From Synechococcus elongatus PCC 6301 (lineage in GTDB: Bacteria; Cyanobacteriota; Cyanobacteriia; Synechococcales; Synechococcaceae), in the NCBI RefSeq assembly GCF_000010065.1, contig NC_006576.1:1950001-1982000 (forward strand): 32,000 bases of DNA, written 5' to 3'. The position numbers and the translations under genes are program-made. Below, piece by piece: positions 2,041 through 26,875 of the stretch; the stretch's first letter is position 1; every line of letters starts with the position of its first letter. The notes under the pieces were generated by a model. The model made no database searches. It worked only from the letters and a program-made list of their open reading frames with translations, and was not told the origin of the DNA.

Positions 2041-2876
2041 CAGACCTTGACCGGACGCAGTTGCTGCTTAACTTGGCGCAGCCAGGACCGCAAACGCTGC
2101 CGAGTCAGCCAGCGCGGTCGGTTGCCTTCTCGGATATCGTCGCGGACGTTGAAGCGCTTAATCGCTTGGCTAATTTCTGTGTCTGTGAGGATGCCGGAGT
2201 CGAGTGCCTGCTGCATGGCCTTGAACCAGAGGTCGCCGTAGGGATGACCGGGTCGTTTCCAAGGCTGACGCTTGAGGTCGGTGTAATGGATCAGTCGAGT
2301 TTCGCGATCGGCAAAGTCAAAGCTATTCCAGCGTGGATCCAGTGCCCCGATCTGATAGGGGCGTTTGTTCAAAAAGCGCGGTCCCATGCAGGGCAGATCG
2401 CGATAGTCGTAAACACCGGCTTCCAGTTCATCAATGAACTGTTCGAGGGGAAATCGGCAGCGATCGCAATCAAACAGGACGACACTCAAACCCCAGAGAG
2501 CACCAGCGCGATCGGGATAGGCTTCGGCTTTGGCGAGGAAGTCTGCCCCTTCCAGATCAGTGTCAAACAGTTCGCCAATATCGTGTAGGCAAACCACATC
2601 GGAGTCGATGTAGATGGCGCGGCCTTGGTAGCCGCAGAGTTCTGGAATCAAAAAACGGTAGAGGCTAAACTCCGTCGCATTCCAGTACTTGACCCGCAGT
2701 GACATGGGGGCGGGACGGGGTGGCTCTCCTAAAACCTCTAGGGCGTTGTGGGTGCCGTTAAACGCCGTAATTGCCAACGGGCGATCGGTCATCCGTTGTA
2801 GCGAATCGATCGCCACTTGCCGCTCAATGCGGCTGGCTTCTCCGGAACCAATGAAGATGCGAATGGGATCGGCCAT
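2040..2876 (-). CDS. glycosyltransferase family 8 (retaining, LPS-core type)
   Basis: 278 aa. GT8 hallmarks: YRFLIPELCGYQGRAIYIDSDVVCLHDIGELFDTDL (DxD = DSD) and the C-terminal LIHYTDLKRQPW motif. It is a clear paralogue of ORF 8908..9882. Confidence 0.85.
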   Translation of the reverse strand: MADPIRIFIGSGEASRIERQVAIDSLQRMTDRPLAITAFNGTHNALEVLGEPPRPAPMSLRVKYWNATEFSLYRFLIPELCGYQGRAIYIDSDVVCLHDIGELFDTDLEGADFLAKAEAYPDRAGALWGLSVVLFDCDRCRFPLEQFIDELEAGVYDYRDLPCMGPRFLNKRPYQIGALDPRWNSFDFADRETRLIHYTDLKRQPWKRPGHPYGDLWFKAMQQALDSGILTDTEISQAIKRFNVRDDIREGNRPRWLTRQRLRSWLRQVKQQLRPVKV

Positions 2877-2908
2877 GGGGATATCCCCAGCGAGGGTTAT
2901 CGCCCAAG

Positions 2909-3358
2909 CTACTGTGCTGCTGGAGCTGACAGCAAGCCCGATTGTGCCGCTGGCAGAGGTTGCCGCATCGCAGCCTCAGGTGGGGGTGGAATAATGCCGT
3001 AGCCCTGCCACTCGGGCTCAGACTCCCCGCGACAATCAACGCGAAGGCCATAGCGTGCCAATTGATAGCGATACTCTCCGGTCAGGCAGTCGTTATCACC
3101 ATTGGGAATCAAGTTTTGGTCGATCGCATAGCGGATAGCGGCCTCAACCGTCCGATTCGGCGTGGTCTGAGAGTCAGGGGTCGCGAGTGGCAGTGCCCCC
3201 TGGGCCTGCAGAGCTTGTAGACGGGCCTGATGTTCAGCAAAGTCCCATTGAATCCGAAGCCCCATACAACCGAGAAAACCTAGGGCGATTGTGATCATCA
3301 CGATCGGTTCTCGGTAGCGTTGCCAAGTTTTCTGCAGAAAGCGCGATCGCACAGTCAT
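2909..3358 (-). CDS. hypothetical membrane-anchored protein
   Basis: 149 aa with one N-terminal hydrophobic helix (IVMITIALGFLGCMGL), a coiled QARLQALQAQ segment and a two-Cys C-terminal domain. It sits 4 nt downstream of the ligase-like gene, in the same - strand operon. Confidence 0.6.
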   Translation of the reverse strand: MTVRSRFLQKTWQRYREPIVMITIALGFLGCMGLRIQWDFAEHQARLQALQAQGALPLATPDSQTTPNRTVEAAIRYAIDQNLIPNGDNDCLTGEYRYQLARYGLRVDCRGESEPEWQGYGIIPPPPEAAMRQPLPAAQSGLLSAPAAQ

Positions 3359-3362
3359 GGCT

Positions 3363-5627: not shown

Positions 5628-5776
5628 TCGCTAGCGCTCCTCAGTGGGACTGCCGCACAGTTAAAAACAATGCAGGGGCGTTGGGCCACTGGGCTGGTCT
5701 GACCCAAGCTTGGCCCCGAGGGGGGTAGAGCCTGTGCTTTAATGCAGAGCCACATCGCGGCTGCCAAAGTATAGCT

Positions 5777-6748
5777 ATGGCTCCTCTCCTGTTTCGACAA
5801 ATTTTGGATTTAGAAGCAGAGGCGATCCAGCGAGCTGCTGAGCGGGCGGATGCTGAAGCTTTCGCGAATGCGACGCAATTGATTGCCAATTGTTCCGGCA
5901 AAGTAGTGCTCAGCGGGGTTGGGAAGTCGGGTATTATCGCCCGCAAAATTACGGCCACGCTGCTCAGCATTGGCACCCTCTCTGCCTTCCTTCATCCCTG
6001 CGACGCCCTGCATGGTGACCTCGGCATCGTCACTGAGCAAGATGTGGTCGTCATGCTCAGCAATAGTGGCGAAACTGACGAACTGCTGGCGATGCTGCCC
6101 CATCTGCAACGGCGTCAGGTGCCGATCATTGCGATCGTTGGCAATATGCGGTCTACACTGGCGCGGGTTGCTGCCGCTGTTTTGGATGCCTCGGTCGATC
6201 GCGAGGCCTGCCCTTTGAATTTGGCCCCGACGGCTAGCACAACGGTGGCGTTGGCGATCGGAGATGCCTTGGCTGCCCAAGTGATGGACTATCGATCGGT
6301 CACGTCTGAGCAGTTTGCCTTTAATCATCCGGCAGGACGCTTGGGTAAGCGGTTGACCCTAAAAGTGGTGGATGTGATGCATCAAGGGGAAGAGCTGCCG
6401 TTGCTGCCGCCGGAAGCTCGTTTTGTGGAGGTGGTGACGGCAATCAGTCGCGGGGGCTTGGGGGCCGTACCGATCGTGGAAGCCGATGGCCGTTTGTTGG
6501 GCTTGATCACGGATGGTGACCTGCGGCGACTCTTGGAACAGACGAGCCCGGCCAAGCTCGATCAAATTACAGCGGCAGAGTTCATGACGCCTCAGCCAAT
6601 TGCCGTTGAAGGTGACCTACTGGCCTATGATGCGCTGCATTTGATGGAAAACCGTCCGTCTCAAATTTCGGTGCTTCCCGTCGTCGATGCGGCCCAGCGC
6701 TGTCTCGGACTGGTGCGGATTCATGATTTGATCCGCAGTGGGATCTAG
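5777..6748 (+). CDS. kpsF: arabinose-5-phosphate isomerase (KpsF/GutQ/KdsD family)
   Basis: 323 aa. SIS domain (GKVVLSGVGKSGIIARKITATLLSIGT, SNSGETDEL) followed by a tandem CBS pair at the C-terminus. First gene of the Kdo operon. Confidence 0.9.
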   Translation: MAPLLFRQILDLEAEAIQRAAERADAEAFANATQLIANCSGKVVLSGVGKSGIIARKITATLLSIGTLSAFLHPCDALHGDLGIVTEQDVVVMLSNSGETDELLAMLPHLQRRQVPIIAIVGNMRSTLARVAAAVLDASVDREACPLNLAPTASTTVALAIGDALAAQVMDYRSVTSEQFAFNHPAGRLGKRLTLKVVDVMHQGEELPLLPPEARFVEVVTAISRGGLGAVPIVEADGRLLGLITDGDLRRLLEQTSPAKLDQITAAEFMTPQPIAVEGDLLAYDALHLMENRPSQISVLPVVDAAQRCLGLVRIHDLIRSGI

Positions 6749-6762
6749 GAGCAGCACAGTCC

Positions 6763-8866
<2,104 letters not shown>

Positions 8867-9965: not shown

Positions 9966-11054
9966 TTGGTGCCTTACTTAGAGAGGTTGCGTCAGATTCA
10001 GATGACGACCGCCGGCGATCGCCCGTTTGATCTCTGGCTCCTGCTGCCAACGGAACGGGAAGTCAAAGCCCATGAATTGCGATCGCTAGTGGGCTCTGGT
10101 TGCCACCTATCGCGATCGCTATGGCCACTACGCTATCTCCGTGCTAACCCCCAGCAGAGCGTGGGGCTCTTTTGTCTGGATCATCAGCTCTTCCCCGAGG
10201 CGCATCGCTTGGGAATTCGCGTGGCACGTTGGCTGCGTCAGCAAGGGGTCACGACGATCTGCAGTCAGCACGGTGGCACCGATGCCGAGAGTTTGGCAAG
10301 TTTAGCCTCGTCTGCCTCCGAAACCCTGCTGATTTGGGGGCACTATGCCGAGCAGGTGTTGCGCGATCGCTATCATTGGCAACCTTTGCAGCTCAAAGTC
10401 GTTGGCAATCCGCTCCACGATCGCCTCTTCACGATTCCTAAACCAACTCAGCCTGATTTTGATCAGCCGCTGATTCTCGTGGCTACGACGCTGCAACGGG
10501 AGTACGACGATCGCCCCAACTCCCAGCAGTGCTACCGCGACTATTTGCGCTGTTTGTTTTCAGCCTTAGAAAGCATCAACGGACGGGTGATGATCAAACG
10601 CCATCCCCGCGACCCTCAGCAACCGGATCTCTACGCAGAAGTACTGACTGAATTCCCAGCGTTACAGCAGCGGACGACTCTACTCTGGTCTCAGGATCAG
10701 CCCGATACCTACAGGCTGTTGCAGCAGGCCGATTTGGTGATCAGTCGCGCGTCCACGGTGCTGGAGGAAGCAGACATGCTCGGGAAAGCCACGATTGCCT
10801 TTGATCTCTTTCCAAATGGCCCTGCTAGTCGTTATCTGCATTTGCAAGCATTTCCGAACTTTCAGTGGATTGCAGGTAGTGAAACCACGTCTTTAACAAC
10901 GGCAATCCAGACTGCCCTGGCAACGCCTCAACTGCAGACTGATCAAGATCGCGATCGCTGTATTGCAGCATTTAGCGATCGCCTAGATGGACGCTCAGTG
11001 GAGCGTGGTGTGGCGGTCATTCTGGAGCAGCTCCAGCGGCAGCCCAAGCTTTGA
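9966..11054 (+). CDS. uncharacterised GT-B-like protein with HP motif; putative CMP-sugar (Kdo) glycosyltransferase, capsule-synthesis (KpsS/KpsC)-like pattern
   Basis: 362 aa with a TTG start at 9966; an alternative ATG lies at 10002. Pattern: LILVATTLQREYDD-(about 30 aa)-VMIKRHPRD-...ADLVISRASTVLEEADMLGKATIAF, a typical GT-B C-terminal half. The function is inference. Confidence 0.5.
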   Translation: MVPYLERLRQIQMTTAGDRPFDLWLLLPTEREVKAHELRSLVGSGCHLSRSLWPLRYLRANPQQSVGLFCLDHQLFPEAHRLGIRVARWLRQQGVTTICSQHGGTDAESLASLASSASETLLIWGHYAEQVLRDRYHWQPLQLKVVGNPLHDRLFTIPKPTQPDFDQPLILVATTLQREYDDRPNSQQCYRDYLRCLFSALESINGRVMIKRHPRDPQQPDLYAEVLTEFPALQQRTTLLWSQDQPDTYRLLQQADLVISRASTVLEEADMLGKATIAFDLFPNGPASRYLHLQAFPNFQWIAGSETTSLTTAIQTALATPQLQTDQDRDRCIAAFSDRLDGRSVERGVAVILEQLQRQPKL

Positions 11055-11131
11055 GAGCTTCTGGAACCAAGGCCAGATCATTGGCTTTCCTCGCTAGGAT
11101 CAGGACTTAGGTCTAGTACGAGACGCCTGCC

Positions 11132-12259
11132 TTGTCTGTCACTGCCCAGCGATCGCCAATTTTGCTTGCCCCTGCTCAAGTGTTACGAGGCTGGGGCGCA
11201 CTCTCAGAGGCAGGATCTGCGATCGCCCGCGTTGGTCAGCGTCCCCTTGTGGTGGGTGGCGATCGCGCCAGAGCACTCGTCCAAGACAGTTTGACGGCGA
11301 TCGCTTCAGAACAATCCCTGACCCTAGGTTGGGGCAGCAGCTTGCCGGACTGTAGTGAAGCGGTTTTGGCACGGCTCCAGCAAGCAGCAACCGAGCATCA
11401 AGCTGATTGCATTCTAGGTGTGGGCGGCGGTAAGGCGCTCGATACGGCCAAACTGCTGGGGCATCAACTGTCGCTGCCGGTGATCACCGTGCCGACGAGT
11501 GCGGCGACCTGTGCGGCTTGGACAGCATTGGCGAATGTCTATACCGATGCCGGGGCTTGGCTCTACGATGTCGGTCTCGATCGCTGTCCTGAGTTGCTGA
11601 TTCTCGACTTTGAACTGATTGCCCAAGCGCCCCCCCGCACCCTAGCGGCGGGAATTGGGGATGCGATCGCCAAGTGGTACGAAGCTTCCGTCAGCAGTGG
11701 TCATCGCCAAGAAACTTTGGTCGTTGCGGCGGTTCAGCAAGCTCGTGTCCTGCGTGATCTGCTCTTCCAGAAATCGGCTGCCGCGATCGCGGAACCTGGC
11801 GGTGAGCAATGGTACGAAGTGGTGGAAGCCACCGTTTTACTTGCAGGCGTGATTGGGGGGTTAGGTGGGGCGCAATGCCGCACGGTGGCTGCCCATGCTG
11901 TCCACAATGGCTTGACCCATCTGCCCGCTTGTCATGATTGGCTGCACGGCGAGAAGGTTGCCTTCGGTATTTTGGTGCAGTTGCGTTTAGAAGAACTGCA
12001 AGGCACCAACCCGCTGGCAGCAACCGCACGGCAACAACTGCTGAGCTTCTATGCCGATCTGGGGCTGCCGCGCCAATGGTCTGACATGGGCTTAGCGTCC
12101 GTCAGCTTAGCGGATTTGCAGCAAGCGGCAATTCTGGCCTGTGCGCCCGAGTCGGACATTCACCACCTGCCTTTTGCGGTGGATCCTGATCAGCTTTTGG
12201 CGGCGATGGTTTCCACGACTACCCCGATCGCCCGCAGCAACAGTGTGGTGGCTGAATGA
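11132..12259 (+). CDS. iron-containing alcohol/glycerol dehydrogenase family protein
   Basis: 375 aa with a TTG start. Motifs: GVGGGKALDTAKL, VITVPTSAATCAAW, and a His-rich metal site (HAVHNGLTH...HGEKVAFG). Confidence 0.8.
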   Translation: MSVTAQRSPILLAPAQVLRGWGALSEAGSAIARVGQRPLVVGGDRARALVQDSLTAIASEQSLTLGWGSSLPDCSEAVLARLQQAATEHQADCILGVGGGKALDTAKLLGHQLSLPVITVPTSAATCAAWTALANVYTDAGAWLYDVGLDRCPELLILDFELIAQAPPRTLAAGIGDAIAKWYEASVSSGHRQETLVVAAVQQARVLRDLLFQKSAAAIAEPGGEQWYEVVEATVLLAGVIGGLGGAQCRTVAAHAVHNGLTHLPACHDWLHGEKVAFGILVQLRLEELQGTNPLAATARQQLLSFYADLGLPRQWSDMGLASVSLADLQQAAILACAPESDIHHLPFAVDPDQLLAAMVSTTTPIARSNSVVAE

Positions 12260-14012: not shown

Positions 14013-15926
14013 ATGGCTGATTCCACTCTTGCTCAGTTGCTCGAAATTTTGCGGCAGCAATCTTTTGTGGATTTGCCGCGTCCGCAAATCTACTTCAAGG
14101 CTTCGCTGACAGCCCTGTCGCATGCCCTGGAGGATTTGGTCTTTGCCACGGATGAGAAGCCATTATTAATCGCCAGTTTCCAGCGCGAGCGCTTCTATCG
14201 CCAAGAAGCCCATCGCTACGAGCGGCTGGCCCACGTGACCAGTGCTCAGTTTGTGCTGGCCGCCGCAGAATCCCGCTTTGCCGATGCGGATACCTATCCC
14301 GCCGTGGCGTTTCCACCCTCCGATCCGCTGGCCTTGGAATGGAATCTGGTGGTGATTGGCCCTCGCACCACCGGCTGCCTGATCTGCATGGAAAAACTCG
14401 ATCGCCAAGGTCCCTTAGAGCCGGCCATGGATACGGCACGCCCCTTTGAGGGCATTTGGACCACCGATCGCCGCGTCGTCACGGTTGCAGCCGAGCTTCT
14501 GCTCGATCGCATTGCTGAATTTCGACCCGATTTACAAGCCAAGACAGAGTCGGCGATCGCGGCGCTTCCTCCTGCCGAAGCCAGTGCTCCCAGCGTCGAA
14601 ACGCCTTTTGCTGAGCGCCTGCTCAACTATCTACAAGCCGGACAATACAAACTCCTCAAGGCCTATCGCGCCCAGGCCCGACAAACTCGCAAAGAACAAC
14701 TGATCAACACGATCAGTAGTGCGGTGCGCCAATCGCTCAATCCTGAAGCGGTTCTCGAAATTGCCGCACGAGAACTTGGGCTGTCGCTGGCTGCCAATCG
14801 CTGTCTGATCTATGCCTGCACGCCGGAAACGGAACAGATTCTGGTGGAGCATGAGTATCGCCAAACCGAGACCGCTTCCCTAGGCGATCGCCTCTGGCCC
14901 CTGCAAGAGAATCCACTCTTCCAGCAAGTCGCCACTGATCGCAAAGCGATTCGTCTGACCGTCGATGATCCTGAAGCGACCCTGCCTTACATCCAAGCGA
15001 TGCGACAGCAGTGGGACATCGCCCACTGGCTGCTAATTCCGGTGCAGTATCGCCAAGAACTGATCGGGATGATTGAACTCCATCGCGAAGCGACTGCCGA
15101 GCCTTGGGATCTCGCGGATCAAGAACTGGCAGAAGCGATCGCGACTCAGATTGGGGTGGCACTGATTCAAGCCCAGACCTTCCGGCAGCTGGAAAATCTG
15201 GAACGCACCCGCAGCAATCTGACGGCGATTATTGGTCACGAGCTGCGAACCCCCCTCTCGACTGTGCAAGTCTGCCTCGAAAGTTTGGCCACTGAGCCGG
15301 ATATGAGTGCGGATCTGCGCCAAGTGATGTTGCAGACGGCTTTGGATGATGCGGAGCGGCTGCGCTTGTTGGTGCAAGATTTTCTGACCCTCTCGCGTTT
15401 GGAAAGTGGCCGGATTGACTGGCATCCAGAATCGCTGGCGCTGGATGAATGCGTCGCCATGGCGATGAGTGGACTGCGATCGCGGCATCAGCGCGACTCA
15501 CTGCCCAGCATCGAACAAAAGCTGCCCGCCAGCTTGCCGCTGGTGCGGGTGGATGGCGACTGGCTGGTGGAAGTGCTGATTAAGCTGCTGGACAACGCCT
15601 GTAAGTTCACCAGCGCCCAAGGCCACGTTTCGATTACGGCGGTCGTAGAAGGCGATCGTGCCTTGCGTGTGGCGATTACCGACGATGGCCGAGGAATCGA
15701 ACCCGATCGCCTCGAAGCAGTTTTCGATCGCTTCTACCAAGAAGATGGCGCGCTACGGCGCAGCCAGGGCGGCAGTGGCCTGGGGCTCGCGATTTGTCGC
15801 CAGATTGTCGAGCGACTGGGTGGGCATATCTGGGCTGAGTCAGAAGGGCGCGATCGCGGGAGTTGTTTTCAGTTCACGCTTCCTCTGGCGACCCGGCATC
15901 CGCAGACGGCAAACGCACTGACTTAA
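14013..15926 (+). CDS. soluble sensor histidine kinase (DICT-like N-terminal domain, GAF, HisKA, HATPase_c)
   Basis: 637 aa with no hydrophobic segments. The N-terminus QIYFKASLTALSHALEDLVF...LIASFQRERFYRQEAHRYERLA looks DICT-like. The central part is GAF-like. H-box IIGHELRTPLSTV, N-box KLLDNACKFT, G-boxes DDGRGIEPD and GSGLGLAICRQIV. Confidence 0.9.
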   Translation: MADSTLAQLLEILRQQSFVDLPRPQIYFKASLTALSHALEDLVFATDEKPLLIASFQRERFYRQEAHRYERLAHVTSAQFVLAAAESRFADADTYPAVAFPPSDPLALEWNLVVIGPRTTGCLICMEKLDRQGPLEPAMDTARPFEGIWTTDRRVVTVAAELLLDRIAEFRPDLQAKTESAIAALPPAEASAPSVETPFAERLLNYLQAGQYKLLKAYRAQARQTRKEQLINTISSAVRQSLNPEAVLEIAARELGLSLAANRCLIYACTPETEQILVEHEYRQTETASLGDRLWPLQENPLFQQVATDRKAIRLTVDDPEATLPYIQAMRQQWDIAHWLLIPVQYRQELIGMIELHREATAEPWDLADQELAEAIATQIGVALIQAQTFRQLENLERTRSNLTAIIGHELRTPLSTVQVCLESLATEPDMSADLRQVMLQTALDDAERLRLLVQDFLTLSRLESGRIDWHPESLALDECVAMAMSGLRSRHQRDSLPSIEQKLPASLPLVRVDGDWLVEVLIKLLDNACKFTSAQGHVSITAVVEGDRALRVAITDDGRGIEPDRLEAVFDRFYQEDGALRRSQGGSGLGLAICRQIVERLGGHIWAESEGRDRGSCFQFTLPLATRHPQTANALT

Positions 15927-18001: not shown

Positions 18002-19414
18002 CTAGCGCTCTTTGCTGTAGGCATCTTCGCCGTGTAGGGCAAAGTCCAGCCCTTCCAACTCCTGTTCCTCCGTGGCGCGGACACGCATGACCGATTTCAG
18101 GATCGTCCAGATCACGAAGGTAGCGATGCCAACAAAGAGATAGGTAATCAACACGGCTTGGATCTGTGCCCAAGTCATGGCCAAAGGACCCTGGGAGATC
18201 ACCTTGAACTGGGTTGGGAAAGCTTTCTCAACGAGGAAATCCTTCTGGGCAAAAATGCCCGTGAGAATAGCGCCGACGGTTCCGCCAACGCCGTGTACCC
18301 CAAAAGCATCTAGGGAATCATCCAGTCGGATCCGGCTCTTAACTTTGGCGACGAACAGAAAGCAGACTAGGGCTGTCAAGGCACCGATGGGAAGTGCCGC
18401 CCAAACAGGAATGAACCCAGCAGACGGTGTGATTCCGACTAGACCAGCCACCGCGCCGGTTGCGGCGCCTACGGCGGTGGGCTTCCCGAGGTCAATCTGC
18501 TCGAGTAATAGCCAAGTCAGCATGGCTGTTGCTGCTGCCGTATTGGTGGTGAGGAAGGCAAAACCGGCGCCTTGGGCAGCGAAGTAGCTCGCGCCGTTAA
18601 ATCCAAACCAGCCGAACCAAAGCAGACCTGCCCCCAACAAAATAAAGGGCACATTGTGCGGCGGCGACAGACGATTCGGGAAGACGCGACGCGGGCCGAT
18701 CATTGCCACGGACACTAGGGCACCCACCCCAGAGGCAATATGGACAACGGTGCTGCCGGCAAAGTCGAGGGCGCCAATCTGGCCATAGATAAAGCCATTG
18801 CTTCCCCAGACCATGTGCGCCATAGGGATGTAGACAAGCGTGGACCAGAGCAAGCCGAACCAGAACCAAGCCTTAAAATTGACCCGCTCTACCAGCGCTC
18901 CAGAAATCAGAGCGGGCGTAATGATTGCGAACATGCCTTGAAACAGCGCAAAGCTGGAGGCAGACATACCGGAGATCATCAACTCATCGCCGGCCCAGAC
19001 AGGATCAATGCCAAACTTGCCACCGACACCATTGAAAAACAGGTTACTAAAACCGCCGATAAAGGGACTCCCTAAACTGGTGTCGAAAGCGAGACTGTAG
19101 CCATAAATCACCCAAGTCATGCCGACGAGCCCCATCATCAAGAAGCTCATCATCATGATATTTAGGACGTTCTGGGCTCTGCCAAAACCGCCATAGAAAA
19201 AGGCTAGCCCCGGTGTCATCAAAAGGACGAGGGCTGAGCCGATTAGGAGGAGTAGCGTGTCAGTTCCAGTCTTGGCGGCAGTGACGTTGCTATTGAGCTG
19301 CTCCAGCGTTAGCTGAGGTGCAGTTGCTGCCAGAGTTGGATGGGCCAGCAGAAATGCAGAAATGCCAGCCAGTGCTGCAGTCAAACCCAGAGTTCGCCAT
19401 CGTTTGTCGAACAT
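18002..19414 (-). CDS. amtB: ammonium transporter (Amt/MEP/Rh family)
   Basis: 470 aa with a signal-like N-terminus. Amt signatures are present: LDFAGSTVVHIASGVGALV and DDSLDAFGVHGVGGTVGAILTG. There are many TM segments. Confidence 0.93.
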   Translation of the reverse strand: MFDKRWRTLGLTAALAGISAFLLAHPTLAATAPQLTLEQLNSNVTAAKTGTDTLLLLIGSALVLLMTPGLAFFYGGFGRAQNVLNIMMMSFLMMGLVGMTWVIYGYSLAFDTSLGSPFIGGFSNLFFNGVGGKFGIDPVWAGDELMISGMSASSFALFQGMFAIITPALISGALVERVNFKAWFWFGLLWSTLVYIPMAHMVWGSNGFIYGQIGALDFAGSTVVHIASGVGALVSVAMIGPRRVFPNRLSPPHNVPFILLGAGLLWFGWFGFNGASYFAAQGAGFAFLTTNTAAATAMLTWLLLEQIDLGKPTAVGAATGAVAGLVGITPSAGFIPVWAALPIGALTALVCFLFVAKVKSRIRLDDSLDAFGVHGVGGTVGAILTGIFAQKDFLVEKAFPTQFKVISQGPLAMTWAQIQAVLITYLFVGIATFVIWTILKSVMRVRATEEQELEGLDFALHGEDAYSKER

Positions 19415-19787: not shown

Positions 19788-21983
19788 TCAACCCTTACTC
19801 GTACTAGCATCGGCGTAGAGAGCAGCGGCTGCCCGATGATTTTCGATGATGCGATCGCACAGCTCTGTCGGGCCGAGGACCTTAACTTCACCCCCCATGC
19901 CCATAATCCAGTTTTTGAGGGTGACCTCTTGAATCGACCAAGCAGGGAGCCAGACTTTCATTTGATAGGGATGGGTCGGATCGGCTGCTTTGGGCAGGCT
20001 GTAGATTTTCTTGAGGCCCGGCAGTGCGGTGAGGAGATGCCGATCGGGCGGCAGCGTCATTTTGACTTGTCCATCGGGAAAGCGCTGTGTGCCTTCACTG
20101 ACGAAGCGAAATAAGCGCTCGCTAAAGCGTAATTCGAGTACCTGCATCAGCTTGAGCCGGGCGGCCAAGGTCTTAATTTGCAGGAGGGCTTGTTGGGGTG
20201 CAACGGCCCCGCCGAGATACAACCCATAGCTTTGGCTGCGCAGCAGTTCAAGGGAATCGAGCGATCGCTTTTGCTCGGCGTGACTGCGGGGCTTGCCAAC
20301 AGGACCGCTCTGATACAGGCGATCGAGCCGTTCGTAGCAATACAGTCCTTTCTGGTCCCCTTCAGCCAGTTCATAGCCGAGATACCAGGCAATATTGTGG
20401 AAGACTATTTGCAAAGGCCAAATAATCTTTTCCGAGTCGGGTTGTTCTTGATATTGTCCAGCGCCTTTAAAGCGTCCCACACGAATTGCTTGGCCAGAGC
20501 GGATTGCTTGCTCTAGTTTCTGGCTCTCGTCCGCAGTGGCTAAGGATTGATTGCTTAGCAGGTCCGAGTTAACGATATTACCGCCAGCAATCGATCGCAC
20601 TGGGTAGAGATTCTTGAGGTCAAAGCGAGCCCACTCCAAGCCTTGACGAAGACGATTGACCGCACGAGTTTCGATGGGGTTATCTAAACTCAGAACTTGT
20701 TTATCGACCAACTGGTAGATTTGCAGAAGGTCATCACGGTTGAGAATTCCAGTTCCTAAGTAGTAGCCTCTGCGCATGGTAGCCTCCGGGAAGATTCGAT
20801 AGGGGTGTAAAACCCATTCAATGTCTTTGCGGAGCATGCCTTGCTCCGTAGAACTAACTAAAATACGAGCGCCAATTAATTGATCGGCCAAGATGTCTAT
20901 CCGTCTCCGCTGGGGATTGAGCAACTTGTCTTGAAGGTGATGTTCCTCTTGGGTCAGTGGGTTCTGGATGATATAGCGGATTGTTTTGAACAGTCGCTTA
21001 AAGGTATCCCAATCGCTGTAGTGATGAAAAAATAGGGGTTCGCCAGAGTCAATGAAAGAGGGCTGTGTTAATTCATGAAAGCTGACATCACTGCCCAGAA
21101 AACCCTCAGATTCTAACCAGTCTAGATCTGCTGCGATCGCTTCTGAATCGCAATAGATTTCACCATGCTGAGCCCCTAAAATGGCTGCAATTTCTGCAAT
21201 AGAATCTTGAAAGTTAGGTTGCTCTTGCGTCTTTAATAGTTGTTGCAATAATTCAGGCTGTTGCTCTTGCAGACTGCCGATGCCAGGATAGCAGCTTAAC
21301 AGTGCAATCAAGTGCAGTAGTCTGTCAAAATCACGCAAGCGAGAGTAACGATGTCGTTCGATTTTTCCGTAGCGATTTTCGTGGTTAACCGCACTGCGTC
21401 GACACTTCTTAAGTTGTTCTTGAATGGTGTTGGATAGATTGGGGTTTTTGACCGGATCAATGCTGGCAATCCCCACAAAGCCCTCGCCCTGCATTGGTTT
21501 GAGCTGTCGCTGATAGGCATGAAAGTTCTCGATCACAGCTTCAGGCACTTGCCGCGATCGCTGTTGATTCCAAGCTTTGCAGGTCTTTAAGTCAGTCTTC
21601 AGCTCCCAGCCAATCCAGCTCAAACCATGAACTTGTAATTTCTGCAAGAAGCCCATGCGCCAAGCGCGTTTGACGTTGGTCGCGTCGTAGATAATTGCTT
21701 TCTGAGCGAGCACCGCTTCCTGAATTTGGCGCTGAAGTTCTGCTTCTATTTCAGCCCAAGGTCCTTGAACGGCTGCATCTCCATACAGTCGTTCACGAAT
21801 GCCATCAGTAGAGATGATGACCGCTGCCCCTAGTTCCTGTTGCAATGCTCTGGCAAACGTGGTTTTGCCACTGGCGGGTGGGCCAATCAAGAGATGGTTC
21901 CAAGGTAAGTCGGGGGCACTCAGCACAATCAGCATGGGTAGGTTGGACGTCTTAACCCTGGCAGAGCCGGACTCACATGCCAA
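19788..21983 (-). CDS. fusion protein: P-loop kinase (AAA_33/polynucleotide-kinase-like), winged HTH, WYL domain, WCX-like C-terminal domain
   Basis: The track start at 21983 is TTG; the probable start is the ATG at 21935 (MLIVLSAPDL...). Walker A GPPASGKTT. HTH-like RLLHLIALL...SIAEIAAILG...AIAADLDWLESEGFLG. WYL core IWPLQIVFHNIAWYLGYELAEGDQKGLYCYERLDRL. C-terminus VWLPAWSIQEVTLKNWIMGMGGEVKVLGPTELCDRIIENH. Confidence 0.8.
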   Translation of the reverse strand: MACESGSARVKTSNLPMLIVLSAPDLPWNHLLIGPPASGKTTFARALQQELGAAVIISTDGIRERLYGDAAVQGPWAEIEAELQRQIQEAVLAQKAIIYDATNVKRAWRMGFLQKLQVHGLSWIGWELKTDLKTCKAWNQQRSRQVPEAVIENFHAYQRQLKPMQGEGFVGIASIDPVKNPNLSNTIQEQLKKCRRSAVNHENRYGKIERHRYSRLRDFDRLLHLIALLSCYPGIGSLQEQQPELLQQLLKTQEQPNFQDSIAEIAAILGAQHGEIYCDSEAIAADLDWLESEGFLGSDVSFHELTQPSFIDSGEPLFFHHYSDWDTFKRLFKTIRYIIQNPLTQEEHHLQDKLLNPQRRRIDILADQLIGARILVSSTEQGMLRKDIEWVLHPYRIFPEATMRRGYYLGTGILNRDDLLQIYQLVDKQVLSLDNPIETRAVNRLRQGLEWARFDLKNLYPVRSIAGGNIVNSDLLSNQSLATADESQKLEQAIRSGQAIRVGRFKGAGQYQEQPDSEKIIWPLQIVFHNIAWYLGYELAEGDQKGLYCYERLDRLYQSGPVGKPRSHAEQKRSLDSLELLRSQSYGLYLGGAVAPQQALLQIKTLAARLKLMQVLELRFSERLFRFVSEGTQRFPDGQVKMTLPPDRHLLTALPGLKKIYSLPKAADPTHPYQMKVWLPAWSIQEVTLKNWIMGMGGEVKVLGPTELCDRIIENHRAAAALYADASTSKG

Positions 21984-21991
21984 GGTTTGCC

Positions 21992-22027
21992 ATGCGAATG
22001 ATGAATCACAGAAATCGATATTCGCAT
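21992..22027. promoter_or_regulatory. candidate operator: 8-bp inverted repeat ATGCGAAT-N20-ATTCGCAT in the divergent promoter region
   Basis: Read directly. It is centred between the kinase-WYL ATG (21935) and the ATG of the Zn-ribbon ORF (22092). Extra GAAT/ATTC half-sites are nearby: GATGAAT at 22000-22006 and ATTCATC at 22073-22079. Confidence 0.3.
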
Positions 22028-22091: not shown

Positions 22092-22421
22092 ATGACTGAC
22101 TCTTTGCCCGCCTTGCACTGCCCTTTCTGTGGCTTGCCTGTCCACACCGATCAATCGCACTGCCCCCACGTGCGCTTTATCTATTCCTTCGATCGCGCCC
22201 AATTCCATTTTCTGTCGCCTGATCTGGCTGCCGCGATCGCTCAGGCAGAACAACAGCAAGAAGGTTGTGCAGATGCCGAATGGCAATCACCGCCTGAACT
22301 GGCACAAAACCTGTTGTTGCAACGGCCGCAAGCAGCAGTTCTCGATCTGCAGTTGCGGCTACGGAGCTGGGCAGGTTGGTTGGTTGGGGTTGAACAATCT
22401 GCGATCGCCAGTGCGGAATAG
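22092..22421 (+). CDS. hypothetical small protein with an N-terminal zinc-ribbon-like CPFC-X9-HCPH motif
   Basis: 109-aa ORF with an ATG start, divergent from the kinase-WYL gene. The Cys/His cluster is LHCPFCGLPVHTDQSHCPH. I recognise no family. Confidence 0.5.
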   Translation: MTDSLPALHCPFCGLPVHTDQSHCPHVRFIYSFDRAQFHFLSPDLAAAIAQAEQQQEGCADAEWQSPPELAQNLLLQRPQAAVLDLQLRLRSWAGWLVGVEQSAIASAE

Positions 22422-22693
22422 CGGTTTGGATGCCTGAATTGTGGGGTTTGCCTGTGGTTGCGATCGCCCCTAGTTGCTCCGGCAATCAAGTCTGCCGTTT
22501 TGGGCTGCTATCAGTCAGCGGCAAAAATCTTACTGATTCCAACTCACATCCTTGTTGGCGATCGGGCCAAGGATCCCGCCAAAGCTTGGGGAACTTCTCT
22601 GCTGCACCCAGCAAACTTTCCAGACTTTAGGTTGCTGCATCCTCACTGGAACAGACCGCTACAACATAATTGAGAACTTTCGGAGAAATATCC

Positions 22694-23146
22694 GTGAGCC
22701 TTGCCAAACGCCTGCGCCAAACCTTGGCTAATGCTCAAACTTTTGAACAGCAACGGATTCATGCTGAGGCTCAGTTAGCAGCGGCGGCCGCTCAGCTAGC
22801 CGAGCTATCGGAAGTGGCGATCGGAACCCTAGAAACCGCCATGACTCCGCTGCCCGTGTCGCGTCTGACGGTGGCGGATTTGAAGCAGCGCTATGGCTCC
22901 TATCAAGGTTGCCGCCGCGCTGCCGCCCAGTTAGGAATTCGCTTTCCTAAAACCCCCTCTTGGGAACAGTTAGCGATCGCGCTTTCCCATGTCGGTGCGC
23001 TAAAAGCCTTTTGGCAGCAGTACTGTCTCGATCATCCTGAGTTGGCAGAGGTCAGTCTTTGTCTAGAACTCAAGAGCCTAGCCCCATTGGCATCTGCTCT
23101 CGGGGTGACGGCTCAAGGACTAGCGATTCCCGTAAACAAAGCGTAG
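22694..23146 (+). CDS. hypothetical protein
   Basis: The ORF is open from 22670 (TTG). A GTG at 22694 lies 7 nt after GGAGA. Ala/Gln-rich helical N-terminus. I recognise no family. Confidence 0.45.
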   Translation: MSLAKRLRQTLANAQTFEQQRIHAEAQLAAAAAQLAELSEVAIGTLETAMTPLPVSRLTVADLKQRYGSYQGCRRAAAQLGIRFPKTPSWEQLAIALSHVGALKAFWQQYCLDHPELAEVSLCLELKSLAPLASALGVTAQGLAIPVNKA

Positions 23147-23337: not shown

Positions 23338-23373
23338 GACTGGCTGCAAGCTTGGCGGGGCGATCGCGACTGA

Positions 23374-23446
23374 CGCCTCAGGTTGGGATCGAACCAACGA
23401 CCGACCGCTTAGAAGGCGGGTGCTCTATCCACTGAGCTACTGAGGC
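23374..23446 (-). tRNA. tRNA-Arg (anticodon UCU)
   Basis: The reverse complement reads GCCTCAG-TA-GCTC-AGTGGATA-GAGC-A-CCCGC-CTTCTAA-GCGGT-CGGTC-GTTGG-TTCGATC-CCAAC-CTGAGGC-G. It has a 7-bp acceptor stem, D and T arms, and anticodon loop CU-UCU-AA. There is one C-U mismatch at 27:43. Length 73 nt; CCA is not encoded. Confidence 0.93.
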
Positions 23447-23455
23447 AATCTGTCT

Positions 23456-23484
23456 ATTCTCGCCTGTTGTCTGCTTCTGCTCAA
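23456..23484 (-). promoter_or_regulatory. putative sigma70-type promoter of tRNA-Arg
   Basis: On the - strand: TTGAGC (23484-23479), 17-nt spacer, GAGAAT (23461-23456). The -10 element ends about 9 nt before the mature tRNA 5' end. Confidence 0.35.
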
Positions 23485-23969
23485 GTCCAGCGATCAAGCC
23501 GCTCTTCAGTAAAAACAGGAGGGGTGATAGCTTGTCCTGACCACTTATTACCATGGTTACAGCTTTATAACAGGTATAGGTTGGGCAAATTTAGCAACAG
23601 TAATATTCACCAGCTAACGGTTGCTTATCCTCACAAGGGCGTCTCCGTAAATGAAGGTCACTCAAGAGCCAATCACGCTCGACTTGCTTCGGGATTTTGA
23701 GCAATATTTTATTCGTCGACCTAAACAGAAAAATATCCCTTTGTAATATCTAACTGTGCAAGCCTTGCTTCAGTCATCAATGCCAACGGCGCGATGGCCA
23801 GAGTGGGTCTTGTCCTATGAAGACAGTCCAGATTTTCCCGCTTTTGAAGCTTATTATGATGAGTTGGTGCTGCCCTTCAAATTAGGGTTGATTTAACTCT
23901 CGTGAGGGCCCATCAATGCACGTTTGAGCATGTTGCTGGCCTGCAACTTGAGAACTGGCCCAATAACAA

Positions 23970-24003
23970 ATCTGCTTGAAGCTGAGACTCACCTCAAGCA
24001 GAT
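23970..24003 (-). terminator. hairpin downstream of chlD (possible intrinsic terminator)
   Basis: ATCTGCTTGA(A)G...CTCAAGCAGAT forms an 11-bp stem with one bulge. On the - strand it is followed by TTTGTTATT, about 30 nt after the chlD stop. Confidence 0.4.
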
Positions 24004-24031
24004 AGATGCCAAGGTTTTGCTGTGATCGCCT

Positions 24032-26089
<2,058 letters not shown>

Positions 26090-26107: not shown

Positions 26108-26875
26108 TTACAGCTCTACTACCGGAATCTCGTCCCAACTGGCGATCGCAAGGGTGAGATCGGGGTTAGGCCAGCAGCGATCGCGTTCCTCACAGGTCTG
26201 GCAGCGCTGCAGGCGATCGGGTCGTTGGGGCAAGGACGTTTCTGGGTAAGCCTGCAGCCAGCCTTTGAATTCTTGCAAACTCTTCTCGAGCTGTTGCTGG
26301 GTTTGCTGGTGTTGTTGCTGATTCCAGTGAATCGTGACCGGTTGCTGGGGCTGACTGCGCACAAACCAGTAGTGCATCGATACGGCTTCCGGTGGTAGGC
26401 CACTGCGCTCCGTCACCAGCCAGCAGTAGAGCTGGGTTTGCCAAGTGGCGGTGAGCGTTTCCAGTGTCTGTGGACGGTTGTGGGTTTTCCAGTCGTGAAT
26501 TTGGGCGGCACGATCGCTCAATTCCAGTCGGTCAAAAATAGCGACCAGCACGAAGTCTTGAAACGGCCACTGCCAGCGGCATTCTGTCTGTCGGTGCCAG
26601 CTTGCTGGGGGTAGCGCAAACAGTTGCGGTTGAGCTGCAGCAAAATCGGCCAGGCACTGATCCAAACTACGATCGCCGGTCTGCAGCTGATCGATCGGAA
26701 TCCCTAAAGCCTGCTGCTGCATCAAACGGTGAAAGCGGCGACCCCACTCCAAGCGCTGACGGAGATCGTGCTGAAACCACCGCCCCGATAGTTCCAGCGC
26801 CTCCACTTGGAACAAACGCGGGCAATCCTGCAGGCGTTGCAGCGTACTTTGAGAAAGGGCTGGATAGTCGCTCAT
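26108..26875 (-). CDS. PD-(D/E)XK nuclease, Cas4/RecB-like, with a four-cysteine (Fe-S type) signature
   Basis: 255 aa. N-terminal Cys in LQDCPRLF. Nuclease motifs: E (TECRW), D (IFDRL), DWK (IHDWKT) and QxxxY (QTQLYCW). C-terminal C-x2-C-x5-C (RCQTCEERDRCW). Confidence 0.8.
   Translation of the reverse strand: MSDYPALSQSTLQRLQDCPRLFQVEALELSGRWFQHDLRQRLEWGRRFHRLMQQQALGIPIDQLQTGDRSLDQCLADFAAAQPQLFALPPASWHRQTECRWQWPFQDFVLVAIFDRLELSDRAAQIHDWKTHNRPQTLETLTATWQTQLYCWLVTERSGLPPEAVSMHYWFVRSQPQQPVTIHWNQQQHQQTQQQLEKSLQEFKGWLQAYPETSLPQRPDRLQRCQTCEERDRCWPNPDLTLAIASWDEIPVVEL

Follow-up and report, generated by a model that had tools for sequence, protein, structure and literature searches.

What would a polynucleotide kinase be doing on the body of a transcriptional regulator? 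The question is raised by a minus-strand gene in the 32-kb stretch of Synechococcus elongatus DNA analyzed here (the window), for which the original prediction had proposed a four-part protein made up of a P-loop kinase, an HTH, a WYL domain and a WCX. Profile and fold matches showed that this architecture is real, i.e., the gene product is a WYL-WCX regulator body with a probable HTH part, fused to a 5'-OH polynucleotide kinase domain of the Pnkp/T4-Pnk type. The prediction knew of no characterized protein of this kind, and our literature search likewise found no paper describing or characterizing one. Among the WYL fusions listed in the main text of Makarova et al. (2014), none has a P-loop kinase.

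A kinase domain joined to a WYL regulator body

The reading frame (19788..21983, minus strand) encodes 731 aa when opened at TTG 21983. The better start is most likely ATG 21935, which gives a CDS of 19788..21935 (715 aa, stop codon included in the coordinates), because the 715-aa form is that found in databases (P0001, P0267), because homologues align from this ATG and because just 9 nt separate the TTG from a conserved palindrome upstream of it. All of the motifs originally quoted, i.e., GPPASGKTT, STDGIRERLYG, IIYDATN, RLLHLIALLSCYPG, the WYL core and the C-terminal VWLPAWS, were found in the translation. Over 715 aa, the window protein shares 100% identity with P0267 (ABB58308.1, BAD80012.1, AJD57226.1), of which ABB58308.1 is the S. 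elongatus PCC 7942 protein; the locus tag Synpcc7942_2278 was assigned by gene order, with amtB (2279) and cas4 (2273) as anchors. An AlphaFold model of the protein (pLDDT 90.8, pTM 0.77) was searched with Foldseek, and its N-terminus matched the C. thermocellum polynucleotide kinase while the remainder matched WYL regulators.

The kinase domain (21456..21902, minus strand; residues ~12-160 in the 715-aa numbering) matched Pfam AAA_33 with E = 8e-24. A search of the PDB with the family profile recovered the C. thermocellum Pnkp kinase (9e-19), PSTK (9e-13), Pnkp1 (3.5e-10) and T4 Pnk (1.6e-4), and the best kinase match by Foldseek was C. thermocellum Pnkp (4gp6; E = 1.9e-9, TM 0.79, 24% identity); mammalian PNKP was matched in both fold and profile searches. 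By its sequence, the domain is thus placed in the 5'-OH polynucleotide kinase clade of C. thermocellum Pnkp, T4 Pnk and PSTK. Walker A spans G18-T26, and the conserved catalytic candidates are D44, R47, D84-A85-T86, N123, R126 and R128. K24, D44, R47, D84, T86, N123 and R126 were invariant across 99 family sequences. K24, T25, D44, R47, D84, R126 and R128, each of them invariant or nearly so in the 99 sequences, align with the corresponding residues of C. thermocellum Pnkp. The features shared with this enzyme are the P-loop with its Lys, the motifs Asp-x-x-Arg and DATN, and two arginines of the Arg-rich lid, but one further lid arginine position of C. thermocellum Pnkp is occupied by W122. 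From the Pnkp literature, we take these residues to be the P-loop Lys and Ser/Thr, the general-base Asp with its nearby Arg, the Walker-B Asp and the lid arginines. Given that the catalytic residues are invariant and aligned in this way, the kinase is likely to be active.

The domain had also been likened to zeta-like kinases. This part of the prediction fell away, since Zeta_toxin scored 18.4 bits, below its cut-off of 22.3, and covered residues 28-69 only. A bacterial Pnkp RNA-repair enzyme was considered and rejected: NCBIfam bacter_Pnkp, whose cut-off is 750 bits, reached 37.8 over the kinase part only, and, unlike C. thermocellum Pnkp, the protein has no phosphoesterase, phosphatase or ligase domain by Pfam search, and no Hen1 partner or conserved methyltransferase neighbour was found in the 84 family loci. 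A weak P-loop match to the PADLOC Csx3 model (E = 0.018) was also recorded.

The significant structural matches of residues 193-715 were PafBC (6.7e-7), DriD (1e-6), CapW (1.9e-3) and BrxR (1.4e-2) only. These residues align to full-length DriD and PafBC at low TM, and which HTH aligns is ambiguous. A single winged HTH had been predicted; the unit named is present, but a second HTH-like unit, with the more canonical motif, appears to follow it in tandem. The first (21096..21353, minus strand; residues ~195-280) contains FDRLLHLIALL, SIAEIAAILG and AIAADLDWLESEGF, has an insertion between helices 1 and 2, and places its helices at 200-215, 245-257 and 264-276. The second (20736..21023, minus strand; residues ~305-400), with FKRLFKTIRYII and MLRKDIEWVLHPYRIFPEATMRRGYYLGTGIL and with helices at 309-324, 345-355 and 362-376, directly precedes the linker helices and the WYL domain. 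At least 90% conservation was seen at R369, K370, D371, L376, P378, Y379, G390, Y391, G394 and T395, and the motif reads as resembling a YafY/PafBC-type HTH. No Pfam HTH model matched the window protein, and a homologue that does not have the insertion (P0042) gave a weak match to HTH_PafC (E = 0.033). Because the Pfam models are silent, the HTH assignment is based on fold matches and sequence motifs, and it is from these that we infer DNA binding.

The WYL domain, an Sm-like beta-barrel (20298..20534, minus strand; residues ~468-546), has its beta-strands at 483-546 in the AlphaFold model. Q509, F512, W517, Y518 and R536 are invariant, and D538 is invariant in 33 sequences and at least 90% conserved in 99. 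Whereas Pfam WYL is weak in the window protein (E = 0.41) and matches 19 of 33 family members, the PADLOC model for CRISPR-associated WYL proteins was matched with E = 7.8e-14 (residues 488-720), and Foldseek aligned the WYL region with the DriD C-domain (TM 0.65, E ~1e-6). The WYL C-terminal extension, WCX (19791..20282, minus strand; residues ~552-715), scored 23.2 bits in the window protein against a Pfam cut-off of 23.9, but all 33 family members match the model (best 5.8e-8), so that both domains named by the original prediction were borne out. The family profile also matched the PafC C-terminus (E = 1e-3), and Foldseek matched the WCX region to PafBC, DriD and CapW. No CARF or SAVED sensor was matched in Pfam or PADLOC, which leaves the WYL domain as the sensor candidate.

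The order of putative HTH, linker, WYL barrel and WCX is that of PafBC of mycobacteria, DriD of Caulobacter, CapW of CBASS and BrxR of BREX. Unlike these regulators, however, the window protein has an N-terminal kinase and an apparent second HTH-like unit, which together roughly double its length, and an HTH that matches no Pfam model. Family members would thus join a sensor, a putative DNA-binding part and an enzyme in a single well-folded protein.

Genomic setting of the family and of the orphan copy

The kinase-WYL family (proteins of ~700 aa) was found in cyanobacteria only, with a patchy and often plasmid-borne distribution. In many of these organisms it accompanies type III-B (Cmr) CRISPR-Cas loci as an accessory gene, and its relatives there, like CapW and BrxR, are encoded beside a defence system. 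CRISPR-Cas evidence of some kind was present at 35 of the 84 family loci, and Cas10, Cmr3, Cmr5 or RAMP genes lay within 10 kb at 30 of them, both being raw counts without a background rate. Of the 16 loci outside the picocyanobacteria whose flanks reached 8 kb or more in both directions, ten were CRISPR-linked. A Csx1 gene (PADLOC CARF1-HEPN, 1e-149) was located within 1.5 kb of the family gene at 16 loci, in seven of which the gap to the Csx1-family gene was 0 to 15 nt. The usual placement in CRISPR loci is either right after Csx1 or divergent from the cmr operon beside an array, with arrays adjoining the family gene at three loci (L002, L024 and L004). On plasmid pAQ6 of PCC 7002 the gene order is cas10, cmr3, cmr4, ..., WYL protein, and on pSYSA a stand-alone 171-aa kinase homologue (50% identity), a natural split version of the protein, follows a type III-B array. 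Two plasmids have AlkB genes after the kinase gene or its WYL-fused form. In picocyanobacteria, the family is linked to an HKD+Snf2 accessory family, C3a139 (2.8e-61, 13 loci).

Two published systems invite comparison. The Csx3-AAA or Csx3' proteins of cyanobacterial type III loci (clusters 35 and 67 of Shah et al., 2018; Athukoralage et al., 2020) share the same design idea and genomic setting, but their sensor is Csx3, a cA4 ring nuclease, rather than WYL, and they have no HTH; the weak Csx3 match mentioned above is the sole link between the two P-loop domains. Sll7009 is a Synechocystis WYL protein that is likewise encoded with a CRISPR locus; compared by description only, it differs in that it represses a type I-D system and that no kinase domain was reported for it in the literature searched. 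Research on WYL regulators is active, as is that on the accessory proteins of type III CRISPR systems, and the present family has members in the genetically tractable S. elongatus PCC 7942, Picosynechococcus PCC 7002 and Synechocystis 6803.

Synpcc7942_2278 is an orphan copy outside any CRISPR-Cas locus, as follows from the 100% identity of the window protein to ABB58308.1 of PCC 7942, a strain that according to the literature has no CRISPR system. In the 32-kb window there was no cas10, cmr, csx1 or CRISPR array, and a Cas4-like gene was the sole cas gene. None of the conserved residues has been lost from this copy, which is intact.

As for many HTH-WYL-WCX regulators, the gene and a candidate target are oriented divergently, and a palindrome separates them. 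This palindrome (ATGCGAAT-N20-ATTCGCAT, 21992..22027), within the 156-nt divergent intergenic region, is a candidate operator of the HTH domains. Its arms are the best-conserved upstream blocks in a comparison with the 63%-identical orthologue (7898-7937 of locus L001), whereas the spacer differs. The palindrome was found only in the clade of the window protein and at one other locus, L026, where a similar site (GATGCGAATGAC...GTCATTCGCAT) is present upstream of a same-strand run of ORFs that ends with the family gene. As RNA, the hairpin was not unusually stable (z = -0.14), and a simple scan gave no sigma-70-like promoter. The candidate regulated partner, Synpcc7942_2277 by gene order (22092..22421, plus strand; 109 aa), carries CPxCG...CPH near its N-terminus, which may form a zinc ribbon. 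It shares 54% identity with the gene that is divergent from the L001 orthologue, its homologues form only four clusters, all of S. elongatus type, and it matched no Pfam or PADLOC family. The second small gene, Synpcc7942_2276 by gene order (22670..23146, plus strand; 158 aa), gave no family match and shares 55% identity across 125 aa with a member of that L001 module. The kinase-WYL gene, the two lineage-specific genes and the palindrome therefore constitute a small module that is conserved in the 63%-identical relative.

Published RB-TnSeq screens cover both divergent genes. Mutants of 2277 scored +1.08 for natural transformation and +1.77 for the RSF1010 plasmid, albeit with large errors and below the authors' |t| > 4 threshold. 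In the same two independent screens, 2278 mutants gave phenotypes of opposite sign, i.e., -0.72 (FDR 3.5e-4) and -1.31 (FDR 2e-11), values that are not distinctive given that, by position in the sorted tables, ~15-20% of genes were lower in both screens. Since 2277 shows these effects on the uptake of foreign DNA and a Cas4-like nuclease is encoded near the family gene in PCC 7942, the module could matter for the genetic tractability of this production strain.

Proposed function and alternatives

The original prediction had offered two hypotheses, a sensor-effector whose kinase is gated by the WYL ligand and a regulator able to produce or destroy the ligand that it reads. The best explanation overall, to which we give a probability of about 45%, is that the protein senses a ligand and acts as a repressor or other regulator, with a 5'-end kinase attached. 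The HTH units would bind the palindrome between the divergent promoters and would thereby control the protein's own gene together with the 2277-2276 pair, most simply as a repressor. WYL-WCX would bind a single-stranded nucleic acid or nucleotide signal made during foreign nucleic acid invasion, and the ligand would alter DNA binding. The kinase domain would phosphorylate the 5'-OH ends of RNA or DNA fragments, which in the CRISPR-linked relatives may be the ends left by HEPN RNase cleavage; the 5' phosphate could then direct the fragments to RNase J or RNase E, whose decay activity would depend on a 5' monophosphate, or, alternatively, block religation that requires a 5'-OH. The conserved palindrome arms, the conserved divergent genes and the opposite-sign mutant phenotypes speak for the regulator role. 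Against this explanation, the solved WYL regulators of the matched type bind ssDNA, not RNA, as judged by structure-entry titles, and at L004, the nearest CRISPR-linked relative, the upstream gene encodes an NYN nuclease; such nucleases leave 5'-phosphate ends, for which a kinase would not be required.

A more far-reaching reading, unlikely but deserving some weight, is that the family provides type III CRISPR immunity with its first kinase-type output, sensing RNA fragments or oligoadenylate, phosphorylating the 5'-OH ends made by Csx1 and exerting regulatory feedback, with the module of CRISPR-less S. elongatus kept as a repressor of 2277. No kinase was described as part of a type III response in the literature searched. 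In eukaryotic rRNA processing, the HEPN RNase Las1 acts together with the kinase Grc3, which phosphorylates the 5'-OH product for a 5'-3' exonuclease. Such a division of labour would agree with the neighbouring positions of the Csx1 (HEPN) gene and the kinase-WYL gene at seven or more loci, but this is an analogy only; the homology extends no further than domain classes, and the biological process is a different one. If this reading were true, phosphorylation would commit cleaved RNA to 5'-phosphate-dependent decay or block its religation, in a bacterial counterpart of Las1-Grc3, and 2277 would be a small protein limiting foreign DNA uptake in an organism that has no CRISPR.

Rather less probable is a DNA-damage sensor or repair factor in which sensing of ssDNA activates repair genes and the kinase heals 5'-OH DNA ends in the manner of mammalian PNKP. 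The closest C-terminal structures are indeed those of the ssDNA-binding DNA-damage regulators PafBC and DriD, the kinase matches mammalian PNKP, the window copy is not linked to CRISPR, and the AlkB genes found on the two plasmids are nucleic-acid repair genes. On the other hand, AlkB and the pAQ6 methyltransferase had a counterpart in none of the 84 surveyed loci, the relatives reside in CRISPR-Cas loci and not in repair operons, and no repair genes adjoin the kinase-WYL gene within the window. The UV challenge proposed with the original prediction is already answered by RB-TnSeq, in which the fitness of 2278 mutants was not significantly altered at any of three UV levels (FDR 0.28 at high, 0.79 at medium and 0.14 at low UV).

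Equally doubtful is a kinase of small nucleotide signals, which would act on linear oligoadenylates, the ring-opening products of cyclic oligoadenylates or another nucleotide, and so make or remove its own WYL ligand as a self-limiting type III regulator. The tight association of the family with Cas10, which produces cyclic oligoadenylate, and with Csx1, which is activated by it, would suit such a role, as would the small-molecule kinases among AAA_33 relatives; yet the best sequence and fold matches were polynucleotide and tRNA kinases rather than nucleotide kinases, none of the matched solved WYL regulators was described with a bound cyclic oligoadenylate, and the copy persists in a strain reported to be CRISPR-free.

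We regard as improbable a kinase of crRNA maturation or RNA turnover that aids the host RNases J and E, with the S. elongatus copy being a near-functionless leftover. These RNases prefer 5'-monophosphate ends. Both are reported to mature the type III-Bv crRNAs of Synechocystis (PMC12464536). The stand-alone kinase homologue lies directly after that array on pSYSA, family genes adjoin arrays at the three loci given above, and the phenotypes of 2278 are mild. However, the ends produced by RNase E carry a 5' phosphate from the outset. A kinase is not mentioned in the RNase J paper, and the HTH-WYL-WCX part would be left unexplained. Moreover, because the orphan copy is intact and its operator candidate and partner genes are conserved, we argue that its function is under selection.

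Finally, an abortive-infection toxin that phosphorylates tRNA, a cell-wall precursor or protein once WYL detects infection is very improbable, for although the kinase has weak similarity to Zeta_toxin, KTI12 and PSTK and the family is linked to defence loci, including C3a139 in picocyanobacteria, the sub-threshold Zeta_toxin match involved the P-loop region alone, the motifs on the acceptor side, Asp-x-x-Arg and DATN, match those of polynucleotide kinases, and no antitoxin-like partner conserved across the family was found in the neighbour clusters of its loci.

Base composition of the gene

The gene had been described as atypical in composition and poor in HIP1 sites. The four HIP1 sites reported for it (19851, 20261, 21133 and 21554) were confirmed, but their depletion was not significant, since the window density of 3.25 per kb predicts ~7 sites in the gene (Poisson P(<=4) ~0.16) and other 2-kb bins of the window contain 2-3 sites. 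The composition is indeed atypical, and the hand-counted G+C values proved exact, both across 20881-21120 (0.517, 0.450, 0.433 and 0.450) and in the control line 4501-4560 (0.583). The dip is not shared by the kinase-WYL family and hence is not a family property; in the window copy, G+C is 0.505, compared with 0.571 for the window, and GC3 is 0.52, compared with ~0.62 in neighbouring genes.

The kinase-WYL protein: domain composition and a conserved kinase catalytic set

The longest reading frame of the kinase-WYL gene extends over 19788..21983 on the minus strand and yields 731 aa from a TTG codon. We consider the 715-aa form starting at ATG 21935 to be the more likely product, because public databases carry this form, homologue alignments begin at that ATG, and a conserved palindrome lies 9 nt upstream of the TTG. 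The 715-aa product matches ABB58308.1 (S. elongatus PCC 7942), BAD80012.1 (PCC 6301) and AJD57226.1 (UTEX 2973) residue for residue (100% identity). All motifs from which the original prediction had read a fusion of P-loop kinase, winged helix-turn-helix (HTH), WYL and WCX domains were found in the translation, and profile searches bore out three of the four parts. The Pfam AAA_33 profile matched at 8e-24, the PADLOC model for CRISPR-associated WYL proteins at 7.8e-14, and Pfam WCX at 23.2 bits, marginally below its cut-off of 23.9. The Pfam WYL match was weak; across 33 aligned family members (cyanobacterial homologues of the protein), Pfam detected WCX in 33/33 and WYL in 19/33.

An AlphaFold model built from 99 homologues (pLDDT 90.8, pTM 0.77) was compared with the PDB by Foldseek. 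The nearest match of the N-terminal domain was the kinase domain of the Clostridium thermocellum polynucleotide kinase-phosphatase (E = 1.9e-9, TM 0.79), with mammalian PNKP, stand-alone fungal kinases and PSTK, a tRNA kinase, next in order. A family profile run against PDB sequences likewise retrieved C. thermocellum Pnkp (9e-19), PSTK (9e-13), Pnkp1 (3.5e-10), T4 Pnk (1.6e-4) and the PafC C-terminus (1e-3). In a residue alignment to Clostridium Pnkp, K24/T25 correspond to the P-loop, D44 and R47 to the Asp-x-x-Arg motif, D84-A85-T86 to DATN, and R126 and R128 to lid residues; one lid position of the Clostridium enzyme is Trp in the kinase-WYL protein. The catalytic roles of these residues are presumably those described for Pnkp. 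Degenerate Walker motifs in orthologues, which would have told against the original prediction, were not seen: across 99 sequences, K24/T25 and the other aligned positions vary little or not at all. The N-terminal domain thus belongs with the 5'-OH polynucleotide kinases. The suggestion of a zeta-like kinase fell away, the Zeta_toxin profile scoring below threshold and spanning the P-loop alone.

Residues 193-715 were also modelled alone (pLDDT 78.6), and the structural matches of this model were solely HTH-WYL-WCX regulators, i.e., PafBC (6.7e-7), DriD (1e-6), CapW (1.9e-3) and BrxR (1.4e-2). The HTH itself could be recovered only in part. Pfam gave no usable HTH match, including with isolated sub-sequences at E <= 10, and was discarded as a means of detection. 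From the model helices and conserved columns, we would read two tandem HTH-like units at about residues 195-280 and 305-400, the first of which is the predicted one. The second contains LRKDIE..L.PY.I.......RGYYLG, a motif that we would liken to the recognition helix and wing of YafY/PafBC-type regulators. With this reservation for the HTH, the models indicate that the protein probably belongs structurally with the HTH-WYL-WCX regulators and works like them.

The kinase-WYL protein is not a Pnkp RNA-repair enzyme, since neither a phosphatase nor a ligase domain is present and a Hen1 partner is missing. In design it comes closest to the Csx3-AAA fusion of cyanobacteria, likewise unstudied. Among the enzymatic WYL fusions given in the main text of Makarova et al. 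2014, there is none with a P-loop kinase. The fusion in the kinase-WYL protein is real, conserved and uncharacterised, can readily be approached by experiment, and does not constitute a new category of system.

Linkage of family members to type III-B CRISPR-Cas

A word-indexed protein search returned 339 family proteins, all from cyanobacteria wherever the source was named. Query coverage was at least 92% in nearly all of the 120 matches listed, and annotations were solely "AAA family ATPase", "WYL domain-containing protein" or "predicted kinase/YafY". When 1.84 billion cluster representatives were searched exhaustively with a profile, 407 proteins passed E <= 1e-30; the family is therefore of modest size. 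A universal cyanobacterial core gene was rejected, as the family is patchy, some genomes carry two copies, and its genes often lie on plasmids; tblastn located 12 full-length members on cyanobacterial plasmids. One of the genomes with two copies, a Synechococcus, has its paralogues at 4368-6584 and 10016-12127 of the locus, 3.4 kb apart. No separate kinase or WYL paralogues were found in the family loci.

To survey gene neighbourhoods, ORFs were called in 83 retrieved loci and their products clustered; the counts, over 84 loci, are raw. The recurrent neighbours were Cmr3, two RAMP families, two forms of Cas10, Cmr5, the CARF-HEPN RNase Csx1 (PADLOC 1e-149) and an HKD(PLD)+Snf2 helicase family, C3a139 (2.8e-61), which has been reported as a type III accessory. 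Cmr-type genes lay within 10 kb of the family gene in 30/84 loci, and 35/84 showed some CRISPR-Cas evidence. Outside the picocyanobacteria, such evidence was present in 34/62 loci, and in 10/16 of those whose sequence extends 8 kb or more to either side. Csx1 was found within 1.5 kb of the family gene in 16 loci, with a gap of 0-15 nt in seven of them. In loci of the Nostocales type, the family gene is divergent from the cmr operon and is itself followed by CRISPR arrays. The HKD+Snf2 gene was the usual neighbour in picocyanobacteria (9/13 loci with enough upstream sequence). In the nine picocyanobacterial loci L060, L064, L067-L069, L074, L075, L078 and L082 it is divergent from the family gene and Cmr genes are absent; in the CRISPR-linked loci L039, L040, L044 and L048 it lies downstream, with a sigma-factor gene between. 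Cyanobium sp. FGCU6 also has two copies (L064, L067); the Cmr-linked one lies 0.12 below its flanks in G+C, pointing to a recent transfer along with the CRISPR module.

The nearest outgroup of the window-gene clade, in Lyngbya confervoides (47% identity), has the order RT/Cas2, 20-repeat array, NYN nuclease, family gene. The NYN/LabA-like nuclease (2599-3663 of that locus, plus strand; PADLOC 1.5e-22) adjoins the array and immediately precedes the family gene at a distance of 25 nt, in place of Csx1. Plasmid pAQ6 of Picosynechococcus PCC 7002 is annotated with cas10, cmr3 and cmr4, then two more genes, a Csx1-like gene labelled "TPR", the WYL protein SYNPCC7002_RS14880, a SAM methyltransferase and AlkB, in that order. 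Synechocystis 6803 carries on pSYSA a stand-alone kinase homologue of 171 aa, SGL_RS01075 (8986-9501; 50% identity to the kinase domain), which directly follows the type III-B CRISPR3 array, so that kinase and regulator body also exist as separate genes in a type III-B setting. Two genes after it lies an AlkB dioxygenase (10031-10657). AlkB and methyltransferase were rejected as conserved partners, being confined to pSYSA and pAQ6 and absent from the 84 other loci (0/84).

The S. elongatus gene: an orphan copy in a three-gene module with a palindrome

Locus tags were assigned by gene order, anchored at one end by amtB (2279; 18002-19414) and a TPR gene (2280) and at the opposite end by cas4 (2273). 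The kinase-WYL gene is Synpcc7942_2278. Divergent from it are the plus-strand Synpcc7942_2277 (22092-22421, 109 aa) and 2276 (22670-23146, 158 aa), followed by tRNA-Arg(TCT) (23372-23447, minus strand) and a ChlD-like gene identified from its translation (24032-26065; about 2274). Synpcc7942_2273 (26108-26875, minus strand), only some 4 kb from the kinase-WYL gene, encodes a PD-(D/E)XK nuclease (Pfam PDDEXK_1 3.4e-25) whose PADLOC Cas4 matches are weak. PCC 7942 is reported to have no CRISPR system except one Cas4-like nuclease (PMC10653904), and the legacy S. elongatus strains to be without CRISPR-Cas (PMC9239245). We found no CRISPR array in the 32-kb window and, among the window ORFs profiled, no cas gene other than the Cas4-like one. 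The S. elongatus gene is therefore an orphan of a CRISPR-linked family. About 4 kb from it on the other side, a histidine kinase whose sensor domains are DICT, CHASE6_C and GAF (14013-15926, plus strand) is, as far as seen, unrelated.

The three-gene module recurs in another S. elongatus-type genome (L001), where a 63%-identical orthologue has other neighbours, RNase J and ppk among them. That locus keeps a divergent 109-aa gene (54% identity to 2277), a 158-aa gene (55% identity to 2276) and the palindrome, ATGCGAAT-N-ATTCGCAT. In the intergenic comparison, the palindrome arms were the best-conserved blocks and the spacer diverged. In a Rivularia locus, a similar palindrome precedes a same-strand ORF run whose last member is the family gene. 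An operator motif common to all family genes was rejected: inverted repeats were frequent, and none was shared outside the window clade and the Rivularia locus. As RNA, the window palindrome (21992-22027) has a hairpin of no unusual stability (z = -0.14), for which reason we favour a candidate operator bound by protein, even though good RNA folding would be expected of the two other copies. A sigma-70 promoter scan found no site. The 2277 protein has an N-terminal CPxCG...CPH motif, and its homologues are confined to S. elongatus-type genomes (4 clusters).

The atypical composition claimed for the gene stood as regards G+C. The hand counts were exact (0.517, 0.450, 0.433 and 0.450 in four 60-nt lines; 0.583 in the control line), and the dip is real, with G+C of 0.505 versus 0.571 for the window and GC3 of 0.52 versus about 0.62 in adjoining genes. 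The four HIP1 sites were likewise where they had been placed; their scarcity was not a significant sign of foreign origin. About seven would be expected at the window density of 3.25/kb, P(<=4) is about 0.16 by a Poisson estimate, and other 2-kb bins of the window hold 2-3 each, so the HIP1 argument carries no weight. Low G+C was also rejected as a family trait, the median gene-minus-flank difference being +0.01 over 60 loci; the closest orthologue exceeds its own flanks. The low-G+C block covers about 5 kb (approximately 18.75 to 24.0 kb), including genes 2276-2278 and, beyond tRNA-Arg(TCT), a 580-nt stretch without a long ORF (23450-24030; G+C 0.45-0.50) that ends before the ChlD-like gene. 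A genomic island at this tRNA is unproven: no directly repeated tRNA end, integrase or att-like repeat was found.

Proposed function and published transposon screens

HEPN RNases leave 5'-OH ends. We propose that the HTH units bind the palindrome and thereby control 2278 and 2277-2276, that WYL-WCX binds a single-stranded nucleic acid or nucleotide signal, and that the kinase domain phosphorylates 5'-OH nucleic-acid ends, which in CRISPR-linked relatives would be supplied by Csx1. The phosphorylated ends might then enter 5'-phosphate-dependent decay, or religation that needs a 5'-OH might be stopped. For the combination of palindrome control, nucleic-acid or nucleotide sensing and 5'-OH-end kinase, we infer a probability slightly short of one half (about 0.45). 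Three other readings remain in contention: the kinase may act on oligoadenylate-type signals; it may assist in crRNA maturation that depends on RNase J/E, in which case the S. elongatus copy would be a relic; or the protein may be a toxin-type kinase.

A literature search found no paper text that mentions Synpcc7942_2278; the gene does appear in supplementary RB-TnSeq tables. In a UV screen, insertions in 2278 were tolerated without significant effect (high -0.10, medium -0.04, low -0.14; FDR 0.28, 0.79 and 0.14, respectively; PMC9659335), so the UV phenotype put forward as a check on the original prediction did not appear. A role as DNA-damage regulator and repair factor, which remains a further alternative, is weakened by this absence.

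In a natural transformation screen (PMC7125226), 2278 scored -0.72 (t = -4.0, FDR 3.5e-4), 2277 +1.08 (t = 2.8, FDR 0.014; 15th highest value) and 2273 (cas4) +2.68, the third highest. For RSF1010 conjugation (PMC10653904, Data Set S2), the values were -1.31 (FDR 2e-11), +1.77 (t = 3.5, FDR 0.0015; seventh highest) and +3.39, respectively. None of the three genes had a significant effect in Data Set S1 of that study, which we take to be the pANS-plasmid control. The negative scores of 2278 are ordinary, about 15-20% of genes lying lower as judged by place in the sorted tables; those of 2277 have large errors and fall short of the authors' |t| > 4 cut-off, which is why the gene was left undiscussed. 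The opposite signs of 2278 and 2277 recur in two independent screens, as would be expected if 2278 repressed an uptake-limiting factor, 2277, and the pattern agrees with the known conduct of WYL repressors of defence genes, e.g., Sll7009.
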